The notes below the pieces were generated by a model. That model was given only the letters and a program-made list of their open reading frames with translations, made no database searches and was not told the origin of the DNA. DNA of 38,838 nt from a virus (taxonomy: Duplodnaviria; Heunggongvirae; Uroviricota; Caudoviricetes), in IMG/VR virus record IMGVR_UViG_2718217859_000004, positions 1 to 38,838 of that record; one strand, given 5' to 3'. The position numbers and the translations under genes were made by a program. Below, one piece after another: positions 11,240 through 38,262 of the stretch. How positions within the stretch are numbered: position 1 is the stretch's first letter; each line of letters begins with the position of its first letter.

Positions 11240-11333
11240 AAAATCATTGCAAAATGAGCCACAAACTGCTTCAATTCCGGTACGCTTCGCATAGCTGTAT
11301 CGCGAGGCGAATCAAGCGCATGAACTTTGATAC

Positions 11334-11357
11334 AACCCGCCATTGAGCGGGTTTTTT
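11334..11357 (+). terminator. Intrinsic terminator ~95 nt downstream of the Q-like gene (tR'-like)
   Basis: ACCCGC-cattga-GCGGGT followed by TTTTTT. Confidence 0.6.
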
Positions 11358-11479
11358 ATGTCCGAAAAACGGCAGAGAACATAAAACGTGCTGGTGGTTG
11401 CGAATACTGGTCTTTCGGCTTGTATTTTTGTAAATCGATATATACTTATCTTGTGACCAGTAATGTCAGGGCAATTGAT

Positions 11480-12223
11480 ATGAATGAAGCCTGTTCTGTT
11501 GTTTTTGTTCATTCCCCGTTTGTTGTGCTCTTTGAAGGAAAAGAGCTCTCTCTTGAAAGTGGTAGTGCACTTCTTGTCAGGGGGGGAGCTGGATCGTTAT
11601 TGCCCTTTTCGGAATGTTTTCGGCGAATAAGTCTCAGTGAATCGACAATTAGCCGTTACCTGTTGTGTGGAGACGAAAAACAGGATGTAGTTTTAGTCCG
11701 GCAAATACCACGATATCTTTGCGTGAGTTTTCCCAAGGCAGAATTGATGGGCATCCTGATTGATTATCTTTGTGAGGAAAAGATTCATACGGACAATTTA
11801 GCGGAAATGCTTTCCTTTTCGTGTCTGGCGTTTTTCTCATCAGAGAAAATGTTTTCGTCGTTTCTGACCGCGTGTATTAGCAATATTAGTGACAGGCTTA
11901 GTGCATTGTTTCGTACGGACATTGCAGCAAACTGGACTCTGAGAGATGTGTCTTCGCGGTTATGTATCAGTGAAAGTTTGTTAAAAAAAAGACTGAAAGA
12001 AGAAGGCACCTGTTTCAGTGAGTTGTTGCTTACAGAGAGAATGAGAATGGCAGCAATGCTGTTGAATCAATCTCGTTGCGCCATCAACAGAATCGCTGCC
12101 CAGTGCGGCTATAATTTTACATCTTATTTTATCAGCGTATTCAGGAGTTATTTTGGTGTTACACCGGCAGGTTACAGGATGGCTGCATTCAATGAGATGA
12201 GTTTAAGTGTTACTCAAGAATAA
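11480..12223 (+). CDS. AraC-family transcriptional regulator, AppY-like (cargo gene)
   Basis: C-terminal AraC HTH (LKKRLKEEGTCFSELLLTERMRMAAMLLNQSRCAINRIAAQCGYNFTSYFISVFRSYFGVTPAGY) and N-terminus EACSVVFVHSPF resemble AppY/EnvY-type regulators; AT-rich gene. Confidence 0.8.
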   Translation: MNEACSVVFVHSPFVVLFEGKELSLESGSALLVRGGAGSLLPFSECFRRISLSESTISRYLLCGDEKQDVVLVRQIPRYLCVSFPKAELMGILIDYLCEEKIHTDNLAEMLSFSCLAFFSSEKMFSSFLTACISNISDRLSALFRTDIAANWTLRDVSSRLCISESLLKKRLKEEGTCFSELLLTERMRMAAMLLNQSRCAINRIAAQCGYNFTSYFISVFRSYFGVTPAGYRMAAFNEMSLSVTQE

Positions 12224-12408: not shown

Positions 12409-12834
12409 ATGTTTGGTATTTTCAAAAAGAAAACCCGCAAGGCCATTACTGAAGTGAAGAAGATGGAGAATCGCGATGCAGTGGAGGCGACCGTCTGGGG
12501 CGCGTATTCCATTGCATATGCTGACGGCACCTGTGACGCGAAAGAAATCGCGGTACTGGAGAAAACCATTGCAGCACTTCCTGCCTTTGCGCTGTTCTCG
12601 GGTGAGATTGCACAAATGAGTGCAAATATCCGCGCCCGTTATGAAGCATCGCCGCGTTCTGCCAATGCCGAAGCCCTCCGCCAGCTGGCTGATGTTGCCG
12701 GTACTGATGACGCTGTTAATGTGCTGTGCCTGTGTCTGGATATCGCTGACCAGGATGGTATTGGTCCGGATGAAGAAGCACAGCTCAAGAAAATTGCTCA
12801 GGCACTGCAGTTACCACTGGAGCAGTACCTGTGA
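12409..12834 (+). CDS. TerB-like (tellurite-resistance TerB domain) protein
   Basis: 141 aa, two DG-x-E-containing helices (YADGTCDAKEIAVLEKTIAAL; DQDGIGPDEEAQLKKIAQAL) typical of the TerB fold; AAGGA RBS. Confidence 0.55.
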   Translation: MFGIFKKKTRKAITEVKKMENRDAVEATVWGAYSIAYADGTCDAKEIAVLEKTIAALPAFALFSGEIAQMSANIRARYEASPRSANAEALRQLADVAGTDDAVNVLCLCLDIADQDGIGPDEEAQLKKIAQALQLPLEQYL

Positions 12835-18800: not shown

Positions 18801-19010
18801 ATGATTTATACGCATGAGATGCTTTGTGATGCCCGCCGGGCATTACATGAACTGATGATCGGACGTGCTGTGGTTTCTGTCGGCAGGAACGGACGGCAGG
18901 TTCAGTATTCGCGGGCGACGATTGGTGAACTGCGGCAATACATTGAAGAGCTGGAGAGTGCGCTGGGTGTGTCCGGACGGCGTCGCGGTCCGGTGGGAGT
19001 GAGGCTGTGA
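18801..19010 (+). CDS. Head-tail joining protein, lambda gpW-like
   Basis: 69 aa; ...ARRALHELMIGRAVVSVGRNGRQVQYSRATIGELRQYIEELE...GRRRGPVG parallels lambda W. Confidence 0.85.
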   Translation: MIYTHEMLCDARRALHELMIGRAVVSVGRNGRQVQYSRATIGELRQYIEELESALGVSGRRRGPVGVRL

Positions 19011-20578
19011 ATGTGGAGTTGATAGATGTTCACGGACAGCCCCTGCGACAGAGTATGGGATATTCCGGTGGCGGCTCCGGATTTGGTGGGCAGCTTGCGG
19101 AATGGCTGCCTGCACCGGAAAGTGCCGATGTGGCGCTGTTGCCTTCCATTCAGCTGGGTAATGCCCGTGCGGATGATCTGGTCCGTAATAATGGCATTGC
19201 CGCGAATGCTGTGGAAATCCATAAAGACCATATCGTCGGACATATGTTTCGCCTGAGCTACCGACCCAACTGGCGCTGGCTGGGGATGTCAGAAGCTGAT
19301 TCGCATGCCTTTATTGAAGATGTGGAGGCGGCGTGGATGGAATACTGCGATCCGGTGTTTGGCTCGATGGATGTGGAAGGACGTCGCTCGTTTACCGAAT
19401 TTATTCGTGAAGGGGTGGGGGTCCATACTTTTAACGGTGAAATTTTTGTCCAGCCTGTATGGGATGCGGAATCCACGTCATTATTCAGAACAAAATTCAA
19501 GACCATCAGTCCGAAGCGCGTCAGTACGCCCGGTTATGGCATCGGCGATCGTTTTATGCGTGCCGGAGTGGAAATCAGCCGGCACGGAAAGGCGATAGCC
19601 TACCATGTTCAGGATGATGACTGGCCGGGTTACAGTGTCAGTAACTGGACACGGATTACGGCGACTCTGCCCTCCGGAAGACCGGGCATGATCCATGTGT
19701 TTCAGCCGCAGGAGGACGGGCAGACGCGCGGGGCAAACCAGTTTTACTCTGTCATGGAGCGCCTCAAGATGCTCGACACACTGCAGGCCACGCAACTGCA
19801 GTCGGCGATGGTGCGGGCGATGTATGCCGCGACGATTGAATCCACACTGGATTCGGAAAAAGCATTTGAATATATCGCCGGGGTGGGGGATGACAGTAAA
19901 AACCCGCTGAAAGCCATCATGAAAGGCTATGCGCACTATTACGCCATCAATGGGGTAAAGATGGGAGGGGTTCGTATTCCGCATCTTTATCCGGGGGATT
20001 CACTGAATCTGCAGACGGCACAGAATGCGGATAATGGGTTCTCTGAACTGGAAAAGGCGCTGTTACGCTACATCGCAGCCGGACTGGGCGTGTCCTATGA
20101 ACAGCTTTCCCGTGATTATTCACAGGTCAGTTATTCCAGTGCCAGGGCATCCGCCAATGAGTCGTGGCGGTATTTTATGGGGAAACGAAAATTTGTGGCC
20201 AGCCGTCTGGCGTCACAGATGTTTGCCTGCTGGCTGGAAGAAGCCCTTATTCGTGGTGTGATCCGCCCACCGAAATCCCGTTTCTCATTCTGGGAGGCCC
20301 GTTCCGGGTGGTGCCGTGCCGAGTGGATTGGTGCCGGTCGCATGGCGATTGATGGCCTTAAGGAAGTGCAGGAAGCGGTGATGCGTATTGAAGGTGGTTT
20401 AAGCACGTACGAGAAAGAACTGGCCCTGATGGGCGATGACTATCAGGAGATTTTCCGCCAGCAACTGCGTGAAAGCCAGGAGCGACAGGCGGCTGGTCTT
20501 CCCCGCCCCATCTGGATAAAGGACACGTTTCAGCAGCAGATCCGACAGACAACGGGAGAGAAAGGCGATGCGTCGTAA
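19007..20578 (+). CDS. Portal protein, lambda gpB-like
   Basis: GTG overlapping W stop; SGGGSGFGGQL...GNARADDLVRNNG...RGANQFYSVMERLKMLDTLQATQLQSAMVRAMYAATIES aligns with lambda B. Confidence 0.9.
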   Translation: MNVELIDVHGQPLRQSMGYSGGGSGFGGQLAEWLPAPESADVALLPSIQLGNARADDLVRNNGIAANAVEIHKDHIVGHMFRLSYRPNWRWLGMSEADSHAFIEDVEAAWMEYCDPVFGSMDVEGRRSFTEFIREGVGVHTFNGEIFVQPVWDAESTSLFRTKFKTISPKRVSTPGYGIGDRFMRAGVEISRHGKAIAYHVQDDDWPGYSVSNWTRITATLPSGRPGMIHVFQPQEDGQTRGANQFYSVMERLKMLDTLQATQLQSAMVRAMYAATIESTLDSEKAFEYIAGVGDDSKNPLKAIMKGYAHYYAINGVKMGGVRIPHLYPGDSLNLQTAQNADNGFSELEKALLRYIAAGLGVSYEQLSRDYSQVSYSSARASANESWRYFMGKRKFVASRLASQMFACWLEEALIRGVIRPPKSRFSFWEARSGWCRAEWIGAGRMAIDGLKEVQEAVMRIEGGLSTYEKELALMGDDYQEIFRQQLRESQERQAAGLPRPIWIKDTFQQQIRQTTGEKGDAS

Positions 20579-22175
20579 TTTATCGCATATTGCCGCCATG
20601 GCATTTAATGAGCCGCTTTTACTGGAACCCGCCTATGCGCGGGTTTTCTTTTGCGCGCTGGGTAAAGAGATGGGGGCCGGCAGCCTTGCAGTTCCTCAGC
20701 AGGCTGTTCAGCTTGATGCTGATGGTATGCAACTGGCTGTGACTGACTATATGGCGGGCGGTCAGCGTCCGGCAAAGAGTTACCAGGTGAAGAATGGCAT
20801 CGCCATTCTGCCGGTGAGCGGCACGCTGGTGCATAAACTGGGTACCCTGCGGCCTTACTCTGGCATGACAGGCTATGACGGTCTGACTGCTCGTCTTCAG
20901 ATGGCGGTGAATGATCCGGATGTGCGCGGCATTTTGCTGGATATCGACAGCCCGGGCGGTCAGGCAGCCGGGGCGTTTGACTGTGCTGACATGATTTACC
21001 GCCTGCGGGAACAGAAGCCCGTGTGGGCGCTGTGTAATGACATGGCCTGTTCAGCCGCCATGTTGCTGGCGGCAGCCTGTACGCGTCGGCTGGTCACGCA
21101 GACGGCAAAAATTGGTTCGATTGGCGTGATGATGGCGCACACCAGTTACGAGAAACAACTGGCACAGGAAGGGGTGGACATCACGCTGATTTACTCCGGG
21201 CAGCACAAGGTTGACGGCAACAGTATTCAGGCATTGCCGGCAGGTGTGCGTGCAGATTTTCAGCGCCGTATTGATGAGGCCCGCCGGATGTTTGTCGACA
21301 AGGTGTCGCTTTATACGGGGCTGAGTTCAGAGGCGGTGATGAATACCGAGGCTGCCGTTTATGACGGTCAGGCAGGGATTGATGCAGGCCTGGCTGATCA
21401 ACTGATTAATGCTGCAGATGCCGTTGAAGTGATGGTTTCTGCAATAAATAAAGAAATTAATAGAGAGGTAAATATGTCGCAAACGAATGTTTCGATCATT
21501 GAGGCTGTGGCCCAGGAAAATCAGCGCGTGATGGAGATCCTGAATTGTCAGGAGGCGAAAGGGCGCGAGCAACTTGCGCAAATGCTGGCAGGTCAGCCTG
21601 GAATGACGGTAGAGCAGGCGAAAGCGTTCCTGGCTGCTGTGCCTGCTGCCAGTGTGGCAAATACAGGTGATCAGATTATGGGGCTGCCGGAAGCAAAGGG
21701 GCGTGAGCAACTGGCACAGATGCTGGCAGGTCAACCGGGGATGACGGTGGAGCAGGCGAAAGCGTTTCTGGCGGCAGCCCCTGCTGCCGGCACAGGCGAT
21801 CAGATTATGGCGTTACCAGAAGCAAAAGGGCGTGAACAACTCGCGCAGACGCTGGCTGAACAGCCGGGAATGACCGTTGACCAGGCCAAAACGTTACTGG
21901 CGGCGGCACCGGTTGCTGGTTCTGCAAGTGTCGGCGATCAGATTATGGCGCTGCCGGAGGCGAAAGGGCGCGAGCAACTTGCACAGGCACTGACAGAACA
22001 ACCTGGAATGACGGTGGCGCAGGCGAAAACGCTGCTGGCAGCCGCGCCGGTGGCATCGCAACCGTCACAGGAAACACTTTTTGATCGCTTTATGGCACAG
22101 CATGCTGCCAGTGCGGTTTCCGGTGGCGGAACTGCCGGGCGCGGGGAGGAAGACCTGCTGATGAGTATGCCGTAA
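20568..22175 (+). CDS. Head maturation protease / scaffold, lambda gpC-like (S49/ClpP-like), with expanded C-terminal repeats
   Basis: MRRNLSHIAAMAFNEPLLLEPAYARVFFCALG...SYQVKNGIAILPVSGTLV...RTGSIGVMMAH aligns with lambda C; 535 aa vs ~439 in lambda because of tandem repeats. Confidence 0.9.
   Translation: MRRNLSHIAAMAFNEPLLLEPAYARVFFCALGKEMGAGSLAVPQQAVQLDADGMQLAVTDYMAGGQRPAKSYQVKNGIAILPVSGTLVHKLGTLRPYSGMTGYDGLTARLQMAVNDPDVRGILLDIDSPGGQAAGAFDCADMIYRLREQKPVWALCNDMACSAAMLLAAACTRRLVTQTAKIGSIGVMMAHTSYEKQLAQEGVDITLIYSGQHKVDGNSIQALPAGVRADFQRRIDEARRMFVDKVSLYTGLSSEAVMNTEAAVYDGQAGIDAGLADQLINAADAVEVMVSAINKEINREVNMSQTNVSIIEAVAQENQRVMEILNCQEAKGREQLAQMLAGQPGMTVEQAKAFLAAVPAASVANTGDQIMGLPEAKGREQLAQMLAGQPGMTVEQAKAFLAAAPAAGTGDQIMALPEAKGREQLAQTLAEQPGMTVDQAKTLLAAAPVAGSASVGDQIMALPEAKGREQLAQALTEQPGMTVAQAKTLLAAAPVASQPSQETLFDRFMAQHAASAVSGGGTAGRGEEDLLMSMP
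21474..22175 (+). CDS. Putative in-frame internal scaffold protein (Nu3-like) nested in the C gene
   Basis: In-frame ATG 21474 preceded by AGAGAGG (spacing 6), just upstream of the repeat region; by analogy with lambda Nu3 nested in C. Confidence 0.4.
   Translation: MSQTNVSIIEAVAQENQRVMEILNCQEAKGREQLAQMLAGQPGMTVEQAKAFLAAVPAASVANTGDQIMGLPEAKGREQLAQMLAGQPGMTVEQAKAFLAAAPAAGTGDQIMALPEAKGREQLAQTLAEQPGMTVDQAKTLLAAAPVAGSASVGDQIMALPEAKGREQLAQALTEQPGMTVAQAKTLLAAAPVASQPSQETLFDRFMAQHAASAVSGGGTAGRGEEDLLMSMP
21553..22060 (+). repeat. In-frame tandem coding repeats (about 3.7 copies of a 129-138 nt unit) in the C/Nu3 scaffold region
   Basis: Units begin ~21553, 21691, 21819, 21957, each encoding EAKGREQLAQ.LA.QPGMTV.QAK..LAA.P.A....GDQIM.LP; copies diverged at synonymous and non-synonymous sites. 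Confidence 0.85.
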
Positions 22176-22213: not shown

Positions 22214-22549
22214 ATGATTAAAACCACCACGGAAAAGCGCGCGGATGTGAACATTTTTGCCGGAAGCGATCCGGCGCATACCGCAAAAGCCACCAGTGGT
22301 ATCAGTGCCGCCACGCCTGCACTGACGCCACTGATGCTGGATGACGCCACCGGTAAACTGGTGGCATGGGATGGTCAGAAAGCCGGAACGGCCGTGGGGG
22401 TGCTGACTCTGGCGCTTGCCGGAACAGAACCCACGCTGACGTACTACAAAAGCGGTACGTTTGCCAGTGAGTCGCTGGTCTGGCCTGACTCTGTGGATGC
22501 GGTGAAAAAAGCCAACGCGTTTGTGGGAAGTGCCATCAGCCACGCCTGA
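22214..22549 (+). CDS. Head decoration protein, lambda gpD-like
   Basis: SDPAHTAKATSGISAATPALTPLMLDDATGKLVAWDG...YYKSGTFASESLVWPD aligns with lambda D. Confidence 0.9.
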   Translation: MIKTTTEKRADVNIFAGSDPAHTAKATSGISAATPALTPLMLDDATGKLVAWDGQKAGTAVGVLTLALAGTEPTLTYYKSGTFASESLVWPDSVDAVKKANAFVGSAISHA

Positions 22550-22617: not shown

Positions 22618-23646
22618 ATGGGGTTATTTACCACGCGTCAGTTACTCGGGTACACCGAGCAGAAAGTGAAATTTCGTGCGCTGTTTCTGGAGCTGTTCTT
22701 TCGTCGCACGATCACTTTCCATACTCAGGAAGTCATGCTGGATAAAATTACCGGCAAAACACCGGTTGCGGCGTATGTGTCTCCGGTGGTGTCAGGCAAA
22801 GTGCTGCGCAGCCGTGGTGGTGAAACCCGTGTGTTACGTCCTGGTTATGTAAAACCAAAACACCGCTTTGATTATCAGCAGGCAGTGGAACGTCTTCCGG
22901 GAGAAGATCCGGCCCGCCTTAATGACCCGGCTTACCGCCGTTTGCGTATTCTGACGGACAACCTGAAACAGGAAGAGCAGGCGATTGTGCAGGTGGAAGA
23001 AATGCAGGCGGTCAGTGCCGTTCTGCAGGGTAAATACACCATGAGTGGCGAGCAGTTTGAAACGGTGGAAGTGGATTTTGGGCGTTCTGCCGCCAATAAC
23101 ATTACGCAGGCTGGCGGACGCGAATGGTCACAGCAGAATGCTGACACCTTCGATCCGACGCATGATCTGGATGCGTACTGCGATTTCGCTTCCGGCACCA
23201 TCAATATCGCGATTATGGACGGCACGGTCTGGCGTATGCTGAACGGTTTTAAACTGTTCCGTGAGAAACTGGATACCAGCCGCGGCTCCAAATCTGAGCT
23301 GGAAACCGCACTGAAAGACCTGGGCTCCGTGGTTTCCTTTAAAGGTCATTACGGCGATCTGGCCATTGTGGTGGCGAAGACAACGTATGTTGACGAAAAC
23401 GGGGATGAACAGCGTTATCTGCCGGAAGGTACACTGATTCTGGGGAACACTCAGGCGGAGGGCGTCCGTTGCTATGGCGCAATCCAGGATAATCAGGCGC
23501 TGAGTGAAGGGATCACCTCTGCAACGCGTTATCCGAAACACTGGGAGGTTATTGGCGATCCAAGTTGTGAATATACCATGACGCAGTCTGCGCCGTTGAT
23601 GGTGTTGCCGGATCCGGATGCGTTTGTGGTGGTTCAGGTGAAATAA
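22618..23646 (+). CDS. Major capsid protein, lambda gpE-like
   Basis: 342 aa; VSPVVSGKVLRSRGG...PGYVKPKH...QVEEMQAVSAVLQGKYTM...GDLAIVV...SAPLMVLPDPDAFVVVQV aligns across the length of lambda E. Confidence 0.9.
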   Translation: MGLFTTRQLLGYTEQKVKFRALFLELFFRRTITFHTQEVMLDKITGKTPVAAYVSPVVSGKVLRSRGGETRVLRPGYVKPKHRFDYQQAVERLPGEDPARLNDPAYRRLRILTDNLKQEEQAIVQVEEMQAVSAVLQGKYTMSGEQFETVEVDFGRSAANNITQAGGREWSQQNADTFDPTHDLDAYCDFASGTINIAIMDGTVWRMLNGFKLFREKLDTSRGSKSELETALKDLGSVVSFKGHYGDLAIVVAKTTYVDENGDEQRYLPEGTLILGNTQAEGVRCYGAIQDNQALSEGITSATRYPKHWEVIGDPSCEYTMTQSAPLMVLPDPDAFVVVQVK

Positions 23647-24064: not shown

Positions 24065-24466
24065 ATGTTCGATAATCTGTTCGATCAGGCCATGAGTGAT
24101 GCGGATGACATCATCCTGGATACGATGGGGACGGAAATCAGCATATATCCGGGCGGCACGGAAAGAAGAATCCGTGCCGTTTTTGATGCCCCGGCAGATA
24201 ACACCGGGATGAACACTGGCAGCGGCGAAATTCGTGATACTGCGCCCGTGTTATTTACCCGGAGCGCATGGGCCGCCGGTCTGAAAAAATATGACAGGGT
24301 CATGATCCACGGCGAACCCTATCAGGTAGTCGATCCCGGCTGGGATGAGTCAGGCACTGCGGGTCAGGGGGTGATTACCATCACCCTTGCGCGTGGAGAG
24401 CCGGGGAGAAATACACCTGCTGCACCGGAACGACCGAGTAAACGTTATGGCAGTCAGAGAGCATGA
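24065..24466 (+). CDS. Head-tail connector protein, lambda FII-like
   Basis: MFDNLFDQAMSDADDIILDTMG vs lambda FII MADFDNLFDAAIARADETIRGYMG. Confidence 0.8.
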   Translation: MFDNLFDQAMSDADDIILDTMGTEISIYPGGTERRIRAVFDAPADNTGMNTGSGEIRDTAPVLFTRSAWAAGLKKYDRVMIHGEPYQVVDPGWDESGTAGQGVITITLARGEPGRNTPAAPERPSKRYGSQRA

Positions 24467-25169
24467 ACGAAGCAGTGCCCGGCAGCGACGGCTGGCACGA
24501 AACCTCGTCGTCGATATTGATGAAGATGAGGTGCTGAAAATTATCGCTAAACTGGGTGGGTCAAAAAGTCAGATCCGTAAAGCCTGGGGCGTGGCGCTGA
24601 AAAGAGCCGCGTCTGCACTGCGGATGAAGGCCATGGCAGAGTTTAAAAAACAGGTTGCCCCACGCAGTCAGAAAATGATCGGAAGGCGTGTGCTGCGTGA
24701 TTTGGTCATTCGTAGAAACGGCGATGAGTTTGACGAGGCAAAGGTATGGTTCGGCCTGAACGCCATCAAAGTACGCGATCTGCGGGGACGCATCAATGGT
24801 GGACGACGCGGCGAACGCCATCAGTTGCGTGATGAGCGGGGACGTTTTGCTCCAGCTTCACGCAGCAGGAAGGCGAGGGAGATCCGTTTTAAACCTGCCG
24901 GTGAGGCAATACCGGTCACCACCTGGTCAGGTGATGAGGCCTTCATTAATGAATTTGAGTCTGAAAACCGACGCGGACGCATTTCACGGCGTAAGACTGT
25001 CCTGGTCCGGCAGGTATCAGGACGACGAAGGGTACGTGAAGCGGAAATTGATATTTACGAAGCCATGCTGAACCGTATAGAGGATTTTGTTTTTCCGGAT
25101 GCGGAAGCACTGATCCTGAAAAATTTTGAGCATGAACTGAAATTCCGGGTATTTAAGGGGCTGGAGTGA
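24447..25169 (+). CDS. Head-tail joining / tail completion protein (lambda Z-like position), tentative
   Basis: ATG 24447 overlapping FII 3' end; basic, helical protein at the position of lambda Z; weak similarity only. Confidence 0.45.
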   Translation: MAVREHERSSARQRRLARNLVVDIDEDEVLKIIAKLGGSKSQIRKAWGVALKRAASALRMKAMAEFKKQVAPRSQKMIGRRVLRDLVIRRNGDEFDEAKVWFGLNAIKVRDLRGRINGGRRGERHQLRDERGRFAPASRSRKAREIRFKPAGEAIPVTTWSGDEAFINEFESENRRGRISRRKTVLVRQVSGRRRVREAEIDIYEAMLNRIEDFVFPDAEALILKNFEHELKFRVFKGLE

Positions 25170-25732
25170 TGGAGCCATTAATGATGGGAGCCTGGCATCA
25201 GGCGGTGATTGACAGTCTGAAACAAATTCCCTGGGTGGAAGATGCCGATGAGTACCCGGAAAAAGTCACTCAACTGGTGACGCCTGCCGTGTTTGTTGAT
25301 GTGCCCGGCTGGGACAAGGCCCGGTTTGCCGACGGGCAGACACGGGTCACGCTGAAATGCGATCTGTTTGTGGTGACAGACCGGGCCGGGAAGACGGAGA
25401 ACGTGCCAAAACCGCAGATTTTTGCCCGTTGTCTGGCGATGGATTTGTCTGACTGGATTGAGGGAGCTACGTTCGGGCTGGATAACGTTGATCCGGCTGT
25501 TTTTATTGATGCTGAGGTGGATACCTTCGACCGGCTTCTGGATGACTACATCGTTTTCCGTGTTTCTTTTGAACAGGATATCCCTGTCGGGGAAGATCCG
25601 TTTGCGGTTCCGGCAGGTGCGCCGTTACAGGAAGTCTGGCTGGGGAAAGTACCGGAAACCGGCAAAAAACATGTGCAGGATTATCGTCTTATCTGGAAAG
25701 CGGAGGGCACCGGCGATGAGTCTGGCGGATGA
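25169..25732 (+). CDS. Neck / tail-completion protein (lambda U-like position), tentative
   Basis: ATG overlaps previous stop (TGATG); last gene before the P2-like baseplate genes. Confidence 0.4.
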   Translation: MEPLMMGAWHQAVIDSLKQIPWVEDADEYPEKVTQLVTPAVFVDVPGWDKARFADGQTRVTLKCDLFVVTDRAGKTENVPKPQIFARCLAMDLSDWIEGATFGLDNVDPAVFIDAEVDTFDRLLDDYIVFRVSFEQDIPVGEDPFAVPAGAPLQEVWLGKVPETGKKHVQDYRLIWKAEGTGDESGG

Positions 25733-26339
25733 AGTGGCAGAGTTACGCCGCAGGGTGGCGAATATAGTCCTGCGCGGCGTGGTGGAGGAGGTGATCCCGG
25801 GGAGTCCGGTGATGGTCCGGGTGGATATCGGGGATGTGCTTTCGCCGCCGTTGCCCTGGATTCAGGTGCAGTCCGGGCGTTACATGCAGGTCAGTAATTA
25901 CCCGGCTCCCGGAGATGCGGTCACGGTGATATCGGAAGCGGGCGATCTGCGTAACGGTCGTGTGTATCCGGGGGCGAATATTGACGCCATTCCTGTACCG
26001 GCGGGCAGCGAATATGAGCATGTTATTTTGTTTGATACCGGCACGGAGATCCGTTACGACCGTCAGGCTAATGCCCTGTCCATCACGCTGGCTGAAGGTG
26101 GCAGCTATAAAATTACCGGCAGGGGAACGCTGGACGGTCCGGTGAAAATCACGGACACCCTGACCGTACAGGGTAAAGCAACCATGAATGCTGAGGCGGT
26201 GGTTAAGGCGGATCTGATGGTCGGCGGTGAGGTTTCTGATCATTACGGAACGATGAGTCAAATCCGGCTTGTCTATAACGGTCACAATCACCGGGGCGAC
26301 AGTGGTGGCAGCACCGGACAGCCTGGCCAGCTAATGTAA
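25716..26339 (+). CDS. Baseplate assembly / spike protein V (P2 gpV-like)
   Basis: ATG 25716 with GGAGGG upstream; C-terminal ...HNHRGDSGGSTGQP matches P2 V C-terminus ...HKHPGDSGGTTGSP. Confidence 0.8.
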   Translation: MSLADEVAELRRRVANIVLRGVVEEVIPGSPVMVRVDIGDVLSPPLPWIQVQSGRYMQVSNYPAPGDAVTVISEAGDLRNGRVYPGANIDAIPVPAGSEYEHVILFDTGTEIRYDRQANALSITLAEGGSYKITGRGTLDGPVKITDTLTVQGKATMNAEAVVKADLMVGGEVSDHYGTMSQIRLVYNGHNHRGDSGGSTGQPGQLM

Positions 26340-26370
26340 TTTCCTTTCAGTTTTTTCCGGAATAAACAAC

Positions 26371-26727
26371 ATGATTGGTATTGATTCAGCCACCGGCAGA
26401 TATCTGCACGGTAATGAACATCTGCGCCAGTCCGTTACCGATATTCTGTCAACGCCGGTCGGCAGCCGGGTACTTCTCAGGGAATACGGCAGCAGGCTGT
26501 TCAGTCTGCTTGATAACCCGCAGGATGATTTCACGCGGGTGAGGATTGTTCGTGAAACGGCAACCGCCCTTGAACGCTGGGAACCCCGTCTGACCCTTCG
26601 CCGGGTGGAGGTGACGTGGACCGGAGAAGGAAGCGCCTGGCTGACGCTTGTCGGGGTGAATAACGAAACACAGGAAACGATTCGACTTGAGGAGATAAAA
26701 ATTGGCAACGTCTCAGGCAATCATTGA
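26371..26727 (+). CDS. Baseplate protein W (P2 gpW / GPW-gp25-like)
   Basis: LRQSVTDILSTPVGSRVLLREYGSRLFSLLDNPQ...ALERWEPRLTL parallels P2 W (ISQSIGDILRTPVGSRVMRRDYGSLLASMIDQPQ...LKWEPRVTL). Confidence 0.85.
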   Translation: MIGIDSATGRYLHGNEHLRQSVTDILSTPVGSRVLLREYGSRLFSLLDNPQDDFTRVRIVRETATALERWEPRLTLRRVEVTWTGEGSAWLTLVGVNNETQETIRLEEIKIGNVSGNH

Positions 26728-27616
26728 TCTGTCCGCGATACCGGTACCGGATGCGGTGGAGGTACCGGACACCGCTGTGCTGGTCACTCAGATAGTGGCG
26801 AAGTATCAGGAGCTGGACACGTTATTTTCGGCCCTGGTGGAATCCGATCCGGCGTATAAATGGGCGGAGGCGCTGGCTTTTCGGGTGGCGCTGATGCGCC
26901 AGCAGGTCAATGATGCCGTCCGGGCCGTACTGCTTGCCAGTGCCCGTGGGAACGATCTGGATCAGGTTGGGGCGAATTTTCAGGTACAGCGTCTGGTGAT
27001 TACCCCGGCAGATGACAGCACCATCCCGCCCACGCCGGCGGTGTATGAAGATGATGACGCTTTTCGCGAACGCATCCAGTTGTCATGGGCACGACTCAGC
27101 ACTGCAGGCGCGAAAAACGCATACCACTATTTTGCCCGGAGTGCCGATCCTGATGTGCTGGATGTGAAAGCCTACGGGCCGGAAACACATTCACAGGAAG
27201 GGCGTGTATTTCTTTATGTGTTATCACGAACCGGAAACGGTACGGCATCACAACCCCTGCTGGATAAGGTGGCAGCGTCAGTTAATGATGATGAAACCCG
27301 TCCCCTGACGGATTTTGTCAGTGTCCGTGCGGCAGAAATTATTCCCTACGATGTGGTGGCGGATATTCATATTCCCTACGGACTGGATGGTGAACTGGTA
27401 ATGGCAAATGCCCGCAAGGCGCTGCAGTCATACACTGACAGCGTCCACCGGATTGGCTCGGTTGCATCCCGTTCTGGCATGGATGGTGCCCTTCACCAGA
27501 CCGGGGTGATTACGGTGAATCTGACCTCTCCGGGCAGTGATATCGTTCCTGCGATGGGGCAGGCACCGTGGTGCCGTAAGGTGACGCTGAACAAGGTGGA
27601 GACAACCGATGAATGA
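26702..27616 (+). CDS. Baseplate protein J (P2 gpJ-like)
   Basis: In-frame stop at 26696-26698 forces a TTG start at 26702 (GGAG 7 nt upstream); AIIDLSAIPVPDAV...GNDLDQVGANFQVQRLVITPADDSTIPPTPAVYEDDD matches P2 J. Confidence 0.85.
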   Translation: MATSQAIIDLSAIPVPDAVEVPDTAVLVTQIVAKYQELDTLFSALVESDPAYKWAEALAFRVALMRQQVNDAVRAVLLASARGNDLDQVGANFQVQRLVITPADDSTIPPTPAVYEDDDAFRERIQLSWARLSTAGAKNAYHYFARSADPDVLDVKAYGPETHSQEGRVFLYVLSRTGNGTASQPLLDKVAASVNDDETRPLTDFVSVRAAEIIPYDVVADIHIPYGLDGELVMANARKALQSYTDSVHRIGSVASRSGMDGALHQTGVITVNLTSPGSDIVPAMGQAPWCRKVTLNKVETTDE

Positions 27617-28199
27617 CGATATCAGGAGCATACTGCCGGTCAGTGCCAGCCGGGCAGAGCGGGTGGTGGACTGTGTCGCCGGAGATATGCTGTCAGACAT
27701 AGCGGTCTGCCTGATCCGCTATGTTAAAAATCCCGATTTATGTCCTGCTGAATTGCTGCCATGGCTGGCCTGGGAAATGGCGGTGGACACCTGGAATGAA
27801 CACTGGACGGAGGCGGAAAAACGGTCTGCGATAAAACGTGCTGCTTACATCCACCGCCACAGAGGGACTAAAGCGGCGCTGATAGCATCGCTGGCTGACA
27901 GTCCCTTCCGGTCGAAGATTGTTGAGTGGTATGAGCAGACCCCACCCGGGGAGCCGTATACCTTTCGTCTGAACGTGGAGCAGAAGGATTTACCGGTGCT
28001 GATGAATGATCATCAGGATCTGAAGCATGCGGTACTCCGTGCCAAAAATCTGCGCAGCTGGTTCAGTATTCACGTTTACGGGAACAGCACAGGGCGGGTA
28101 TTTGGTTACGGCTATGTGATGGCGACAGAAAAAATCAGAAGTACTGGTGTGATAACAAAGACAGTGCCCACTGGCGGGCAGAGTGAGGCAGGAGTATGA
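27609..28199 (+). CDS. Tail protein I (P2 gpI-like)
   Basis: Position and size after J; start overlaps J stop. Confidence 0.75.
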   Translation: MNDDIRSILPVSASRAERVVDCVAGDMLSDIAVCLIRYVKNPDLCPAELLPWLAWEMAVDTWNEHWTEAEKRSAIKRAAYIHRHRGTKAALIASLADSPFRSKIVEWYEQTPPGEPYTFRLNVEQKDLPVLMNDHQDLKHAVLRAKNLRSWFSIHVYGNSTGRVFGYGYVMATEKIRSTGVITKTVPTGGQSEAGV

Positions 28200-29455
28200 A
28201 TGGACTGATTCTGACAACGTCCGGCGCTGCAGAAATTGAAGCAGCATATCAGAACGGGCAAACCGTGACCGTCCGGCATGTTCTGCTTGGTGACGGGGGC
28301 GGGCGGGCATTGCCTTCCACGCCGGATGAAATGGCAGCAATGACATCGTTGTACGGCGAATTCGGGCAGGAACCCTTTTCCGACGGTGCGGTGGAGGAGG
28401 GCTTCATCAGCGGGGATATTGTGATTGACTGTAAATCATACCCCGGTAAAACCCTTCGTGAACTGGGGATGATCAGCGACAGAGGTACGCTTATCGCGTA
28501 CGGACGTTATCCCGACACCTTTTTACCAGACCAGACGGACTCCGTTATCAAGGAAGTTATTCTGACGCTGGTTCTTGGGCTGACGCACGCACAAAACGTG
28601 GTGCTGGAAGTTGATCCGGACAGGGCAATTATTACTCAGGAAATCGGAGACAGACGCTATCTGCAACGAAAAAAGAATCTTTCGGATGTGGAAGACAGTG
28701 ATGAGGCTGTTGAAAACCTCGGATTAAAACCCACGGTGGACAAGGCAAAAAATGCCGTTCAGCGTGATGGCGACACCATGAGCGGGGAACTGAAAATCCG
28801 TGGTGTTAATGCGCTGAGGATTTTCAACGAAGCATTTGGTCTGATTTTTCGTCGTTCGGAAGAGTTCCTGCACCTTATTCCTACCAGTGAAGGTCAGGGC
28901 GAGAATGGCGATATTGGCCCACTGCGACCGTTCAGCATTAACCTGCGGACGGGTGAAATATCCATGTCGCATAAAGTGTCTGTTGGCGGCGGTTCTCAGG
29001 TCAATGGTGCGCTGGGTATCGGCGTTCAGAACGCACTGGGCGGAAACTCAATTGCTTTCGGGGATAACGATACCGGCCTGAAACAGAATGGTGACGGCCT
29101 GCTGGATGTTTATGCCAATGGTCAGCACGTATTCCGTTTTCAGAATGGCGCGTTACAAAGTAACCAGGCAGTGAATGTTTCAGGGCGGGTAACACCGTCA
29201 GACTACGGAAACTTCGATGCACGTTACGCAAAAACAGGGGCCAGTATCACTTCTGTAAGGCTGGGGTCAAGACAAAGCTACTCCCCCGCAGGTAACTGGT
29301 ATACCTGGACGCAGGACCTTGGTAGCGGAAACGTCATGACCGGGATAATCGTTCAGGATACTGGCGACAATTCTGCAGATAACATTGGTGGTATTTATTA
29401 CCGGACCATTCAGTATTGTGTGAATGGTACCTGGATGAATGTATCGTCGATATGA
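28196..29455 (+). CDS. Tail fibre protein with P2 gpH-like N-terminal domain
   Basis: N-terminus TSGAAEIEAAYQNGQTVTVRHVLLGDGGG...ELGMISDRGTLIAYGRYP parallels P2 H (TTAGAAKLAAA...VGDGGG...ELGLYDDAGTLIAV); divergent C-terminal receptor-binding region. Confidence 0.8.
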   Translation: MNGLILTTSGAAEIEAAYQNGQTVTVRHVLLGDGGGRALPSTPDEMAAMTSLYGEFGQEPFSDGAVEEGFISGDIVIDCKSYPGKTLRELGMISDRGTLIAYGRYPDTFLPDQTDSVIKEVILTLVLGLTHAQNVVLEVDPDRAIITQEIGDRRYLQRKKNLSDVEDSDEAVENLGLKPTVDKAKNAVQRDGDTMSGELKIRGVNALRIFNEAFGLIFRRSEEFLHLIPTSEGQGENGDIGPLRPFSINLRTGEISMSHKVSVGGGSQVNGALGIGVQNALGGNSIAFGDNDTGLKQNGDGLLDVYANGQHVFRFQNGALQSNQAVNVSGRVTPSDYGNFDARYAKTGASITSVRLGSRQSYSPAGNWYTWTQDLGSGNVMTGIIVQDTGDNSADNIGGIYYRTIQYCVNGTWMNVSSI

Positions 29456-29481
29456 ATTCGCGTAAAAGAACGGTAAACACC

Positions 29482-30009
29482 ATGATAAACATTAAAAACT
29501 TCAGAGAATACACACCGGAAAATCCACCAGTAGCGTGGGCGTTATATCTCATCAGTGAGGATGGTCAGGACTGGTATGAATGCCAGAAACAGTTTGCGAC
29601 GAATACATACAAAATCATGTATGACAGTAATAACATTGTCCGCAGCATTACAACCGATGTTTCTGCGCTCTGTCCACTTAATGCAAGTGTTACCGAACTG
29701 GATGTACTTCCTGATGGTGTGAATATTGATGGTGGATGGTATTACCAGGACGGCGAAGTGCTGCCTGTGCCAGTGGATTATGTGGCCAAAGCAGAGGCAG
29801 AACGTCAGCGTCTGCTGATGACGGCACAGGATATCACATCCGGTTGGGCTACCGACCTGGCGCTGGGCATTCTCAGTGATGAAGAAAAAGAAAAACTGAA
29901 AGTCTGGCGCATTTACGCGAAATCGTTGCAGGCGTTGGATTTCAGCGCAATTGCAGACAAGACTGCTTACGACAATATTGGCTGGCCGGAGCAGCCACAA
30001 AATACCTGA
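29482..30009 (+). CDS. Tail fibre assembly chaperone (P2 gpG / Tfa family)
   Basis: MINIKNF...ISEDGQDWYECQKQF...KIMYDSNNIVRSITTDVSAL parallels P2 G (MQHLKNIK...SEDGKNWYEEVKNF...KIVYDENNIIVAITRDAS); alternative start 29452 (ATGA overlap with fibre stop). Confidence 0.8.
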   Translation: MINIKNFREYTPENPPVAWALYLISEDGQDWYECQKQFATNTYKIMYDSNNIVRSITTDVSALCPLNASVTELDVLPDGVNIDGGWYYQDGEVLPVPVDYVAKAEAERQRLLMTAQDITSGWATDLALGILSDEEKEKLKVWRIYAKSLQALDFSAIADKTAYDNIGWPEQPQNT

Positions 30010-30028
30010 AAAAGAAATGAATCATCAG

Positions 30029-30050
30029 ACCGCCTGAGGGCGGTTTTTTT
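30029..30050 (+). terminator. Intrinsic terminator between tail-fibre chaperone and sheath gene
   Basis: ACCGCC-tgag-GGCGGT followed by T7. Confidence 0.65.
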
Positions 30051-30063
30051 ATGGGAGAAATGT

Positions 30064-31539
30064 ATGTCCGGACTACATGGTGTTGAAACCATTGAACTGA
30101 CAACAGGCACGGTTGCCGTGCAGACCATCTCCACGGCAGTGATTGGCCTGGTGGGGACCGCACCGGACGCCTCTGGTGGCCTGTGCGCTTCCGGCACTGC
30201 CGGATCGTGGCTGCTGGGAACGGCGCTGGATTTCACGGCGAAACAGGAAGGCAGGGCCGGCAATAAGATTTCGGTGGTTGCCGTCGCTGCCACAGAACAA
30301 AGTGCGCAGACTACGGCCGCGCTGGAAGGTATAACCCTGACGATAACGCTGGGGACGGACGAACACAGCCAGGTTAACGCCACGGTGAACAGTGTGACTG
30401 AAGCGGTGAATGCGCTGGGGGATTCGCCTGTGACGGCGGCTGTCAGCTCCCTGAATGCAGGAGGCGCTGAAAATAATGTGGTGTCGCCGTTCAGCCTGAC
30501 GTTATCCGGCGGGGAAGATGAGGCGTTCCCGGTCAATACACCGGTGGTGGTGGCAGGGGCCATTACTCAGGCAGGGAAACTGGGCACAGCCGGAACATTA
30601 TACCCGGCCCTGCGTGATATTTTTGACCAGACTGGTGCGCTGGTGATTGTTGTGCGCGCAGAAAGTAAAACAAAGGCGAAAGAGGGCGAACAGCGTGCGG
30701 CGGTGATTCAGGCCATGGAGGCGCTGACAGAAAGTAAGGGCGTGACAGGCTATCAACCGCGCATCCTCATTGCCACGGGGTACAGTGAGGATGATGGCGT
30801 GGCAAAGGCGCTGGAAACGTATGCCGCGAAGCTGCGGGCTGTGGCCTATATTGACTCGCCCTCAATGGCAACGCCGCAGGATGTGGTTCAGCGGCGCGCG
30901 TCATTTGGCGGGCGTGTGGAGCTGCTGCGTCCGCGCGTGTCAGTGACGGATGACAGCGGGCAAACGATATTTCGTCCATATTCGGCTCGTGCTGCCGGGC
31001 TGCGTGCCCGTATTGATTACGAAAAAGGGTGGTGGTGGTCCAAATCAAACCAGGACGTGATGAATATCACCGGTATGGAGCAGGTGGACACATTTATTCT
31101 CGGGGAGCAGAACTGCACGGCAAACCTGCTGAACATGGAAAATATCTCCACCATTATTCGCCATGACGGTTTTAAACACTGGGGGAACCGTCTGTGCACA
31201 TCCCACAGTCAGTGGCGTTTTGAGCCGGTACGCCGCACTGCAGATGTGATTGAGGACAGCATCCAGGAGGCCATGCTGCCTTATGTCGATCGCCCGCTTG
31301 ATCGGGATGTGGCAGACGACATTCTTGGCAGCATTAATGCCTATATGCGTCAGCTTAAAAATCTGGGCGCGATCCACGGTGGCAGTGCATGGCTGAACGA
31401 TGAACTGAACACAGCAGAAACCCTGGCGGCAGGGCAGTTGTATATCGATTATGACTTTGGGCCGAAGTCACCACTGGAGCGCCTGACACTGCGGGCAATG
31501 ATTAACAATAAACTGGCGCTGGAGGAACTGACGGTATGA
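30064..31539 (+). CDS. Contractile tail sheath protein (P2 FI-like) with an internal insertion
   Basis: C-terminal half RIDYEKGWWWSKSN...IRHDGFKHWGNRLCTS...LYIDYDFGPKSPLERLTLR aligns with P2 FI (KIDQEQGWHKTLSN...IRRDGFRFWGNRTCSD...LYIDYDYTPVPPLENLTLR); ~95 aa longer than P2 FI. Confidence 0.85.
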   Translation: MSGLHGVETIELTTGTVAVQTISTAVIGLVGTAPDASGGLCASGTAGSWLLGTALDFTAKQEGRAGNKISVVAVAATEQSAQTTAALEGITLTITLGTDEHSQVNATVNSVTEAVNALGDSPVTAAVSSLNAGGAENNVVSPFSLTLSGGEDEAFPVNTPVVVAGAITQAGKLGTAGTLYPALRDIFDQTGALVIVVRAESKTKAKEGEQRAAVIQAMEALTESKGVTGYQPRILIATGYSEDDGVAKALETYAAKLRAVAYIDSPSMATPQDVVQRRASFGGRVELLRPRVSVTDDSGQTIFRPYSARAAGLRARIDYEKGWWWSKSNQDVMNITGMEQVDTFILGEQNCTANLLNMENISTIIRHDGFKHWGNRLCTSHSQWRFEPVRRTADVIEDSIQEAMLPYVDRPLDRDVADDILGSINAYMRQLKNLGAIHGGSAWLNDELNTAETLAAGQLYIDYDFGPKSPLERLTLRAMINNKLALEELTV

Positions 31540-32054
31540 TGACGGGTGAAAAAAAACTGTTGCGCGCATGGGCGTTATTTCTTCCTGGCGGGATCCGCCT
31601 TCAGGGGGCGCATGAATACACGCCGCCTGCGATTAATATCACGACAGTGGATATCAAAACCGGCGCAATGGATGCACCGGTGGCAGTGGATGACGGCATG
31701 GAAGCGCTGACCTGTTCGTTTAAGATTTATGGTTATGATGTTGCCATGCTTACGCTGCTGGGATTACAGGCCGGGCTTTATTCGCCGGAGATCGTTGTCC
31801 GCCAGGGTTACCAGGTGGGGAATGCGACCAGCGGACAGGTGGAAACCCTGCAGGGAATGATCACCAGTATCACGCCGGATGCACGTCCGGCAACGTCACA
31901 GGCAGAGGCTTCGGTGACGGTGGAAATGTCGCTGAGTTATTACCGTCAGACTGTCGACGGTGTGGAAACCATCTGCATTATTCCGGAGGAATTTGTGCGT
32001 CGTATTAACGGCGTTAATGTTCTGTCAGATCTGAAAAAAATCATTCGGGTTTAA
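31536..32054 (+). CDS. Tail tube protein (P2 FII-like)
   Basis: 172 aa, same as P2 FII; C-terminus INGVNVLSDLKKIIRV vs VNGVDRLEQHRRNIGL; start overlaps sheath stop. Confidence 0.8.
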   Translation: MMTGEKKLLRAWALFLPGGIRLQGAHEYTPPAINITTVDIKTGAMDAPVAVDDGMEALTCSFKIYGYDVAMLTLLGLQAGLYSPEIVVRQGYQVGNATSGQVETLQGMITSITPDARPATSQAEASVTVEMSLSYYRQTVDGVETICIIPEEFVRRINGVNVLSDLKKIIRV

Positions 32055-32073
32055 TCCGGTGATCCTGCCATTC

Positions 32074-32100
32074 AGGCGGCTCAGGCCGCCTTTTCTTTTT
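32074..32100 (+). terminator. Intrinsic terminator/attenuator between tube and tail-chaperone genes
   Basis: AGGCGGC-tcag-GCCGCCT followed by TTTTCTTTTT. Confidence 0.6.
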
Positions 32101-32114
32101 TAAAGGAGATGCTT

Positions 32115-32417
32115 ATGTCGGAAAAAAACAGTGTTCCTGCCAGCAGCGTGGAAATTGTGTTATCCGTGCCGTATGTCACCGCATCAGGACAGACGATCAC
32201 ACACATCACCATGCGTGCGCCTACCGTTCGCGATCGTCTGTTGCATCGCCGGAGCACTAAGCCGGAAGCAGAGGCCGATCTGGATATGATTGCCGGTCTG
32301 TGTGGGATGGACGCGGCAGACATGATGAATATGGAAGCGTGCGATTACCTGGCTCTGGAGCGGCAGTTTAATGTTTTTTTGCTGCCGCCGGTCCGGCGGA
32401 AGAAGAAAACATCCTGA
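32115..32417 (+). CDS. Tail assembly chaperone (P2 gpE-like), zero-frame product
   Basis: ATG 32115 six nt after AAGGAG; ends ...FNVFLLPPVRRKKKTS; located between tube and tape-measure genes. Confidence 0.75.
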   Translation: MSEKNSVPASSVEIVLSVPYVTASGQTITHITMRAPTVRDRLLHRRSTKPEAEADLDMIAGLCGMDAADMMNMEACDYLALERQFNVFLLPPVRRKKKTS

Positions 32418-32554
32418 TGGCGATACGGCGCGCCGGTGCCTGGTTAGGGTGGTCTCCCGTGGATGTGATGGCGCTGCCGTATGAGGATTTTGTGACAATG
32501 ATGCTGGCAGAGTCGGAGGAGAGGAAGCAACGTTATGGCAACGGTTGGCGATAA
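32115..32554 (+). CDS. Tail assembly chaperone frameshift product (P2 gpE+E'-like), -1 shift at T_TTT_TTG (32375-32381)
   Basis: Slippery heptamer T TTT TTG in the E frame; the -1 frame continues stop-free for 57 codons (AAAGPAEEENILMAIRRAGAWLGWSPVDVMALPYEDFVTMMLAESEERKQRYGNGWR) to TAA at 32552-32554, overlapping the tape-measure start. Confidence 0.7.
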
Positions 32555-34187: not shown

Positions 34188-34189
34188 AG

Positions 34190-34678
34190 ATGGTGGATTT
34201 ACTGGGCTGGGGCGTAAACCGGCTTGAGCGCGAAGCATGGGACGCAGTGGGCTCATTAACGGAGGTGGCTTCCCGCGTCATGCTGTCGTTTGGTGAGTTT
34301 GAATTCAGTATCGATACGGCAGCGTATAACGCCATGAAGCGCACGATGGAATGGCGATGGGATGAACAACAGCTTATCGGAAAAAACGACCTGCTGCAGT
34401 ATACCGGCAAGGGGGCCAGAACGATAACCCTTGAAGGTATGGTGCATGCGGGATTTCGTGACGGTGTGGGAATGGATGCCCTTGATACACTGGTTCAGAT
34501 GGTGGATGACAATCCGGCCCCGCATCTTCTGGTCTCGTGCACAGGTGATGTGATGGGGTATTTCGTGGCAACCGCCTATTCAGATAACACCACCTCCTTT
34601 CTTCCCGGCGGTGCGCCAAAGAATAAAACGTTCACTCTGGAGCTGAAATACTATGGCGAAAAACTGGCGGACCACTGA
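34190..34678 (+). CDS. Tail protein U (P2 gpU-like)
   Basis: ATG 34190 after GGGGG (alt. GTG 34184 overlapping tape-measure stop); size and position match P2 U. Confidence 0.65.
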   Translation: MVDLLGWGVNRLEREAWDAVGSLTEVASRVMLSFGEFEFSIDTAAYNAMKRTMEWRWDEQQLIGKNDLLQYTGKGARTITLEGMVHAGFRDGVGMDALDTLVQMVDDNPAPHLLVSCTGDVMGYFVATAYSDNTTSFLPGGAPKNKTFTLELKYYGEKLADH

Positions 34679-34871
34679 CGGCGATATGCTGGATGACATC
34701 TGTCAGAGGCACTATGGCAGTGCCGGGCTTAACCAGTCACTGGCGGCGGTACTGGAGGCTAATCCGGGGCTGGCTGACCTTGGTCCGGTCTGTCCGGCGG
34801 GAGTGGAAATCGTGTTGCCGGACTGGGTATATGAACCGGAAGTGAAGGAGACGTTTCAGTTATGGGAGTGA
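34653..34871 (+). CDS. Tail protein X (P2 gpX-like)
   Basis: 72 aa; DGDMLDDICQRHYG...LEANPGLADLGPVCPAGVEIVLPD...KETFQLWE parallels P2 X (QGDTLDAICVRYYG...LAANPGLAELGAVLPHGTAVELPD...TVNLWE). Confidence 0.8.
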   Translation: MAKNWRTTDGDMLDDICQRHYGSAGLNQSLAAVLEANPGLADLGPVCPAGVEIVLPDWVYEPEVKETFQLWE

Positions 34872-35950: not shown

Positions 35951-35974
35951 TTTTTTTAAATCAGGAAATTAAAA

Positions 35975-38248: not shown

Positions 38249-38262
38249 TGAGGAAATCAGGC

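Follow-up and report, generated by a model that had tools for sequence, protein, structure and literature searches.

What does a string of repeated protein segments do in the part of a phage head gene that is expected to encode the scaffold? The question is raised by a gpC-like gene in a 38,838-nucleotide stretch of Caudoviricetes DNA (IMG/VR record IMGVR_UViG_2718217859_000004, positions 1 to 38,838), which we call the window and which an initial annotation had singled out for a tandem repeat in the C-terminal part of this gene. Having followed the repeat through the gene, its predicted products and its relatives, we consider it rather probable that it forms a four-module, helical, multivalent interaction array in a Nu3-type scaffold, shared with the head maturation protease, and that this variant is old, arose by an amplification of its own and has been kept by selection.

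Four modules in a protease gene

The gpC-like head maturation protease/scaffold gene occupies positions 20568-22175 on the + strand, encodes 535 amino acids (aa) and overlaps the end of the portal gene at its 5' end in the list of open reading frames (ORFs). A Peptidase_S49 domain (PF01343) covers aa 146-290 (21003-21437, + strand; E 2.5e-33, 115.7 bits against a cutoff of 24.9), and the whole protein matches PHROG 53, head maturation protease, with an E value of 1e-207. RefSeq holds an identical gene under WP_040091464.1, labelled S49 family peptidase. In an alignment of the window protein with its counterparts from phage 21, lambda, Gifsy-1 and N15, residues C161-S162-A163 are invariant. The initial annotation was right, then, in assigning the repeat to a lambda gpC-like S49 peptidase and, within it, to the C-terminal part equivalent to Nu3.

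Three observations confirm the presence of a tandem repeat at this place. Tandem Repeats Finder reported a repeat at 21663-22039 (period 129, 2.9 copies, score 365) and another at 21795-22051 (period 138). The motif 'EAKGREQLAQ' starts four times in the ORF, at aa 329, 375, 418 and 464, giving periods of 46, 43 and 46 aa. The best ungapped self-similarity of the 233-aa C-terminal region scored 326, against 34.8 +/- 5.2 with a maximum of 52 in 200 shuffles of that region. The count had been put at about 3.7 diverged copies of some 46 aa, and here the description needs revision: phased from the short helix that precedes each motif (QRVMEILNCQ or GDQIMALP), the array resolves into four complete 39-aa cores spanning 21528-22049, with 25 of the 39 columns invariant across all four.

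All parts of the array lie on the + strand. Copy 1 (aa 321-359, 21528-21644) reads VMEILNCQEAKGREQLAQMLAGQPGMTVEQAKAFLAAVP; copy 2 (aa 367-405, 21666-21782) reads GDQIMGLPEAKGREQLAQMLAGQPGMTVEQAKAFLAAAP; copy 3 (aa 410-448, 21795-21911), which has a predicted local distance difference test score (pLDDT) of about 78-81 in the structural model described below, reads GDQIMALPEAKGREQLAQTLAEQPGMTVDQAKTLLAAAP; and copy 4 (aa 456-494, 21933-22049) reads GDQIMALPEAKGREQLAQALTEQPGMTVAQAKTLLAAAP. Between them are linkers of 7, 4 and 7 residues of the Ala/Gly/Ser type: AASVANT (21645-21665), which is variable in length and sequence among relatives and has a low pLDDT, AAGT (21783-21794) and VAGSASV (21912-21932). 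A 41-aa C-terminal tail follows (22050-22172), in which QETLFDRFMAQH precedes a terminal EEDLLMSMP, so that a short helix is succeeded by a conserved hydrophobic end. The tail motifs FD/E-x-FM and LLxxxP are kept in phage 21 and Gifsy-1; lambda and N15 have LDRLM...DLLNTPV.

The repeats are expected to belong to two proteins. A Shine-Dalgarno-like AGAGAGG at 21462-21468 stands, with a 5-nucleotide spacer, before an in-frame internal ATG at 21474-21476 on the + strand, as read from the sequence. The pair sits at the place where phage 21 gene 6 has its annotated ribosome-binding site and start and where lambda nu3 begins, and the internal methionine aligns among relatives. Because of this correspondence we expect, as had been anticipated, that a Nu3-like scaffold of 233 aa is translated from 21474 to 22175, nested in frame in the protease gene and open to the common stop codon. 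The predicted protein matches PHROG 8399 (head scaffolding protein) in four stretches and PHROG 8940 (capsid assembly protein) likewise in four.

Age, copy number and descent of the array

A repeat of this kind invites the suspicion that an assembler collapsed or expanded its copies. Some ground for it exists in that many database homologues are 'partial' at contig ends, so that the region can break short-read assemblies, but the copies in the window are 68-80% identical at the nucleotide level and the longest exact repeat in the array is 27 nucleotides, so that ordinary reads resolve them easily. Moreover, the gpC-like gene is 100% identical in 10 complete Escherichia coli genomes, and the architecture recurs in 75 more from many laboratories and hosts. 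We give the artefact next to no credence, and the worry voiced in the initial annotation is refuted. Altogether 85 of 5,426 complete E. coli genomes contain the four-copy Nu3 region with an identity of 90% or more, and among the matches listed (60 of 86 matching records) the aligned length was that of the four-copy array in every row of near-full coverage. The genomes that carry the region come from cattle, pigs, humans, poultry, goats, mice and water.

The database homologues of the Nu3 region (P0001-P0089) are mostly labelled 'partial' and come from short contigs, which suggests that the Nu3 gene region, or its paralogues in poly-lysogens, often breaks short-read assemblies. A word-index homologue search was not used for copy counts: the proteins it gave were for the most part truncated and labelled 'partial', and full-length members with four copies were absent from them.

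The copies are old. Synonymous divergence (dS) between them is 0.65-2.5, at or near saturation, the ratio of nonsynonymous to synonymous divergence (dN/dS) is 0.02-0.42 and protein identity is 64-92%; compared codon by codon, the differences are concentrated at synonymous positions and the amino acids are preserved. Against the orthologous gene of a four-copy relative (L075), dN/dS is 0.13 for module 1, 0.15 for module 2, 0.18 for module 3 and 0.09 for module 4, beside 0.13 for the protease domain and 0.37-0.6 for the linkers. Purifying selection thus acts on each module copy as strongly as on the protease domain. Given near-saturated synonymous divergence and 85 complete genomes with the four-copy region, the array is not a recent expansion. 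Its age, its conservation and its frequency in E. coli prophages mark it as an ordinary variant and no anomaly.

How many modules relatives carry was surveyed with a hidden Markov model (HMM) of the module built from lambda, N15, phage 21, Gifsy-1 and the window, run on loci fetched with a protease-domain query from genome and viral collections. The model matches lambda once, which bears out the earlier statement that lambda C has a single copy, N15 once and the window four times. In the genome collection one copy was found in 32 complete genes, some of which are lambda DNA that contaminates unrelated assemblies, and three copies in 5 enterobacterial loci; in IMG/VR, 61 complete genes of the phage 21 type have three. 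Three is also the number in phage 21, PhiR12-type phages and Salmonella Gifsy-1. Among window-type relatives, L067-L078 (91-98% protease identity) have four copies, L079 and L081 two, and L080 five; two copies also occur in complete IMG/VR genes of both kinds, L081 being window-type and L097 21-type, and the numbers for L079-L081 and L097 rest on draft assemblies. The comparison with lambda C/Nu3 and related prophages that the initial annotation had recommended therefore yields one copy in lambda and N15, three in phage 21, PhiR12 and Gifsy-1, and two, four or five in window-type genes. An expansion that had been presented as noteworthy turns out to have company, with three annotated units in phage 21, three in Gifsy-1, and an old array in 85 complete E. 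coli genomes.

Module copy number varies by in-register recombination. The two-copy forms are in-register hybrids of flanking units. In the gpC-like gene of L080 (IMG/VR UViG_2547132418_000009), three internal units of 138 nucleotides are 100% identical at the DNA level; the five-copy allele is a very recent in-register amplification, or possibly an under-count or assembly issue. L079 resembles the L080 allele minus its DNA-identical internal units.

These alleles bear on a rival explanation that builds on the initial annotation, a recent, lineage-specific expansion that lengthened the scaffold and changed head assembly or capsid size. Truly recent cases do exist, L080 with its three DNA-identical copies among them, and the predicted window scaffold of 233 aa exceeds the 201 aa of lambda Nu3. 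The copies in the window, however, are as old as their dS indicates, and the four-copy state is common to relatives down to 94% protease identity and to the 85 complete genomes. The major capsid proteins encoded beside 2-, 4- and 5-copy genes are all 342 aa long and 95-98.5% identical to that of the window, which makes a change of head size unlikely and leaves the suggestion of altered head assembly without support. Three-copy phage 21, too, is a viable lambdoid phage, as is generally known, with lambda-type head genes. We regard a recent expansion of this sort as highly improbable. As for the longer scaffold, the claim stands in a modest form against lambda. The three-copy gp6 of phage 21 has 200 aa. 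N15 gp6 has 137 aa, and the scaffolds predicted for the 2-copy and 5-copy relatives about 144 and about 279 aa. That the window scaffold is only modestly longer than lambda's is due to the long low-complexity N-terminal segment that lambda has instead of further modules.

The closest precedent is found in phage 21. Its head operon record (GenBank M81255.1), whose annotation dates back decades, places three repeat_region features within the Nu3 analogue, gene 6. They are called Tri1 box, Tri box and Tri3 box and are annotated 'function unknown; putative'. When translated, their coordinates coincide exactly with the window-type module. A search of the literature at hand turned up neither the phage 21 head-gene paper nor anything on repeats in Nu3, and the evidence on the Tri boxes is for this reason the GenBank feature table itself. 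Genes 5 and 6 of phage 21 share with the window gene an S49 protease with a nested Nu3-analogue scaffold, an arrangement also present in PhiR12-type phages and Gifsy-1, as well as an in-frame tandem of 35-39-aa modules in the shared C-terminal part, short linkers and a similar tail. The protease domains are 73% identical; the window has four copies where phage 21 has three. The window array accordingly adds a case to a class of repeats known from phage 21 and does not amount to a new kind of system.

Since the phage 21 record labels the boxes as repeat regions, they might be taken for DNA or RNA sites acting in regulation, packaging or recombination and not for protein modules. What such sites would lead one to expect is the opposite of what is seen: the copies in the window differ mainly at synonymous positions with the amino acids kept, and no exact repeat is longer than 27 nucleotides. 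We see only a very slim chance that the boxes act at the level of nucleic acid.

The window units are not orthologous to the Tri1, Tri2 and Tri3 set, there being four of them and all nearest to Tri1 (67-83% identity, against 53-63% to Tri2 and Tri3). By comparison, unit 2 of Gifsy-1 is 83% identical to Tri2. Over a 30-aa core the window units are 77-97% identical to one another, and the phage 21 units about 60% among themselves. Because all four window units are closest to Tri1, unlike Gifsy-1 unit 2, the window array looks, on these sequence identities, like a separate amplification and not like the phage 21 array plus one. In the 21-type alleles P0042-P0045, an in-frame loss of 19 alignment columns inside Tri2 (EANGREQ-//-LAAAP) has shortened the middle unit.

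Lambda C/Nu3 and N15 genes 5/6 have the same nested protease and scaffold genes, the same portal-C-D-E synteny and a similar C-terminal tail. They contain the same module once, ENSRIMGILNCEEAHGREEQARVLAETPGMTVKTARRILAAAP, and differ from the window in that this single module follows a long low-complexity N-terminal segment. Protease domain identity to the window is 63% for lambda and 58% for N15, and the major capsid protein of the window is 58.5% identical to lambda gpE.

A gene of 439 aa with one module, which looks like lambda C itself and not like a homologue of it, also turned up in many assemblies of unrelated organisms, among them Neobacillus, Chromatium, Kitasatospora, Shewanella, Pseudomonas, Leeuwenhoekiella, an Akkermansia metagenome-assembled genome and others (L021, L023-L032, L045-L047 and L050-L065). 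These loci are often on short contigs with, by name, a coverage of ~1x, and their identity to the query equals that of lambda-type E. coli loci. They look like contamination by lambda control DNA.

Proposed role of the modules

We modelled the predicted 233-aa scaffold with AlphaFold2. Each unit was predicted as a short helix, a helix of 9-13 residues, a turn at QPGMT and a helix of 9-10 residues, with pLDDT 50-81 overall and 70-81 in units 3 and 4; a further helix was placed in the tail at residues 199-211 of the predicted Nu3, and the linkers and extreme C-terminus were of low confidence. The beads-on-a-string appearance of the model fits the title of a lambda gpNu3 paper cited in PMC11565965, in which gpNu3 is called intrinsically disordered.

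We infer that each module may serve as an interaction unit, with the capsid protein, the portal or the scaffold itself as partner. This reading leans on lambda and on other scaffolds: in lambda, Nu3 reportedly interacts with itself and with C, E and B (PMC3224144), and coat-binding motifs are known from other scaffolds, with helical and helix-turn-helix (HTH) motifs binding coat proteins in P22, SPP1, phi29 and 80alpha (PMC11565965). There is a likeness to the coat-binding HTH of P22-type scaffolds, in that the module appears in the AlphaFold2 model as a small HTH-like element in a mostly flexible scaffold, of the kind thought to mediate capsid contacts (PMC11565965). The resemblance is an analogy only, without detectable sequence or fold similarity. 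It differs further in that the window module is repeated and does not lie at the extreme C-terminus, that its scaffold is nested in a protease gene, and that this scaffold is presumably degraded and not recycled.

On our reading, the gene at 20568-22175 would give two products, the 535-aa S49 protease (gpC-like) and, from the internal start at 21474, the 233-aa scaffold (Nu3-like). Their shared part consists of four modules, each made of a short helix, the helix EAKGREQLAQxLA, the QPGMT turn and the helix VxQAKxLLAAAP, joined by flexible linkers of 4-7 aa and closed by the 41-aa tail. Each module might then draw scaffold and protease into the growing procapsid, several copies making the scaffold multivalent, and the scaffold would presumably be degraded thereafter by the co-packaged protease, as in lambda. 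Head size would most likely be unchanged (T=7, lambda-like). Heavy synonymous divergence between the copies would let the array escape deletion by homologous recombination; long-lived arrays do have synonymously diverged copies.

Several points weigh against such an array of interaction units. The AlphaFold2 model has low to modest confidence (mean pLDDT 59.8, predicted template modelling score 0.25). A sequence search of the PDB with the 233-aa protein and the module profile gave no match below E 0.3, that is, chance-level matches only, and Foldseek of the model against the PDB gave no meaningful fold match (best E 2.8), a result that carries little meaning since the model is too weak and too much a string of beads. 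The copy numbers that depart from four among window-type relatives come, as said, from drafts. The extreme C-terminal tail (…LLMSMP), and not the repeats, could be the element that targets the capsid. Finally, extra copies could add little function, seeing that two to five are tolerated beside near-identical capsid proteins; this last objection is countered by the constraint on each copy.

The main rival is that the repeats are a passive spacer that adjusts length and could be swapped for low-complexity sequence. The lengths of some scaffolds lend it colour: lambda Nu3, with one module and an N-terminal segment rich in Ser, Thr, Ala and Gln, has 201 aa, close to the 200 of phage 21 gp6, with three modules and a short N-terminus, and copy number ranges from two to five among close relatives with nearly identical capsid proteins. 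Scaffold length as such, however, is not conserved, as the N15, 2-copy and 5-copy values given above attest. Nor would a spacer be expected to keep 25 of 39 residues invariant despite saturated synonymous divergence, or to have cores constrained like the protease domain (0.09-0.18 against 0.13) when the linkers (0.37-0.6) are not. Weakened by this per-copy constraint, the spacer strikes us as doubtful.

Returning to the modules as interaction units, we entertain a more specific and tentative version, to which we lean only a little more than to the spacer. Each module would be a unit of valency, copy number tuning how many capsid or portal subunits are bridged per scaffold or protease molecule. 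Recombination would in this way let lambdoid phages quickly adjust both the nucleation of procapsids and the loading of protease. For an array to persist, its copies would first have to be scrambled at synonymous sites, which would guard it against loss by recombination, and the 21-type, window-type and Bradyrhizobium amplifications would be convergent.

For scaffold-capsid recognition in lambda-type phages the module is of interest as the best conserved stretch of Nu3-type scaffolds. Nature supplies an allelic series for work on binding and valency, since alleles having 1, 2, 3, 4 and 5 copies occur next to capsid genes that are nearly identical. For annotation, the repeat is genuine and should not be 'corrected', and it explains why S49 peptidase genes of this kind range from 439 to about 600 aa.

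Wider occurrence and genomic setting

To see how widely the module occurs, 1.84 billion cluster representatives were searched with a profile made from the four units of the window, which matched 330 proteins at E <= 0.001. In the top 150, a single copy is the rule; it generally lies 40-90 residues before the end of S49-type proteins of 400-550 aa, and other single copies lie inside stand-alone proteins of 100-230 aa; about 25 have two or three copies, and no scaffold-type match has more than three. Stand-alone scaffolds from Bradyrhizobium have two units, and alphaproteobacterial S49 proteins have one unit after an acidic linker. Judged from these sequences, the module is a deeply conserved element of the protease/scaffold family, and its tandem amplification has occurred more than once. 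Neither Pfam nor NCBIfam has a curated family for it, the searches returning sub-threshold noise only (DUF732, Bac_DNA_binding and Nif11 leader).

Two representatives from this search stand apart. P0189, an apparent match in five stretches, was rejected as an unrelated tandem HTH-like repeat protein and not a scaffold: its 661 aa contain a dozen or more tandem repeats of ~48 aa (KIDxDKLKQIIxENPNMTLKQIAxIFNCS...) that match the centre of the module profile weakly, which hints that the helix-PxMT-helix core of the module is HTH-like. P0179, of 844 aa, joins an N-terminal part of ~400 aa directly to full-length lambda C and is probably a chimeric or misassembled lambda-derived sequence.

In the window, the gpC-like gene is part of a head module on the + strand that runs in lambda-type order through gpW-like, portal, gpC-like, gpD-like, gpE-like, FI- and FII-like genes in the ORF list. 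The gpB-like portal gene (19007-20578) lies upstream of it, and the gpD/Shp-like head decoration gene (22214-22549) and the gpE-like gene for the 342-aa major capsid protein (22618-23646) lie downstream, all on the + strand and identified from the ORF list and a relative's annotation. The portal-C-D-E synteny is confirmed by the annotation of that relative, which is identical across the gpC-like gene.

A contractile tail of the P2 type is joined to this head module at 24387-38838, with Pfam matches to Baseplate_J, Tail_P2_I, tail sheath and tail tube; examples of ORFs in the region are 26702-27616, 27609-28199, 30064-31539 and 31536-32054. As lambda-type head genes adjoin P2-type contractile tail genes, the prophage is a head/tail mosaic and not a lambda-like siphovirus.

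No tRNAs were found in the window, whose cargo position upstream of the lysis genes is occupied by an AraC-family regulator (11327-12223) and a TerB-like protein (12409-12834). A relative from an Okinawa bovine strain is identical to the window across the gpC gene, and the two share the late region alone, their cargo genes being different: at the cargo position (L002, 10531-13101) that relative has three tRNAs and B-A-B subtilase AB5 toxin-like genes.

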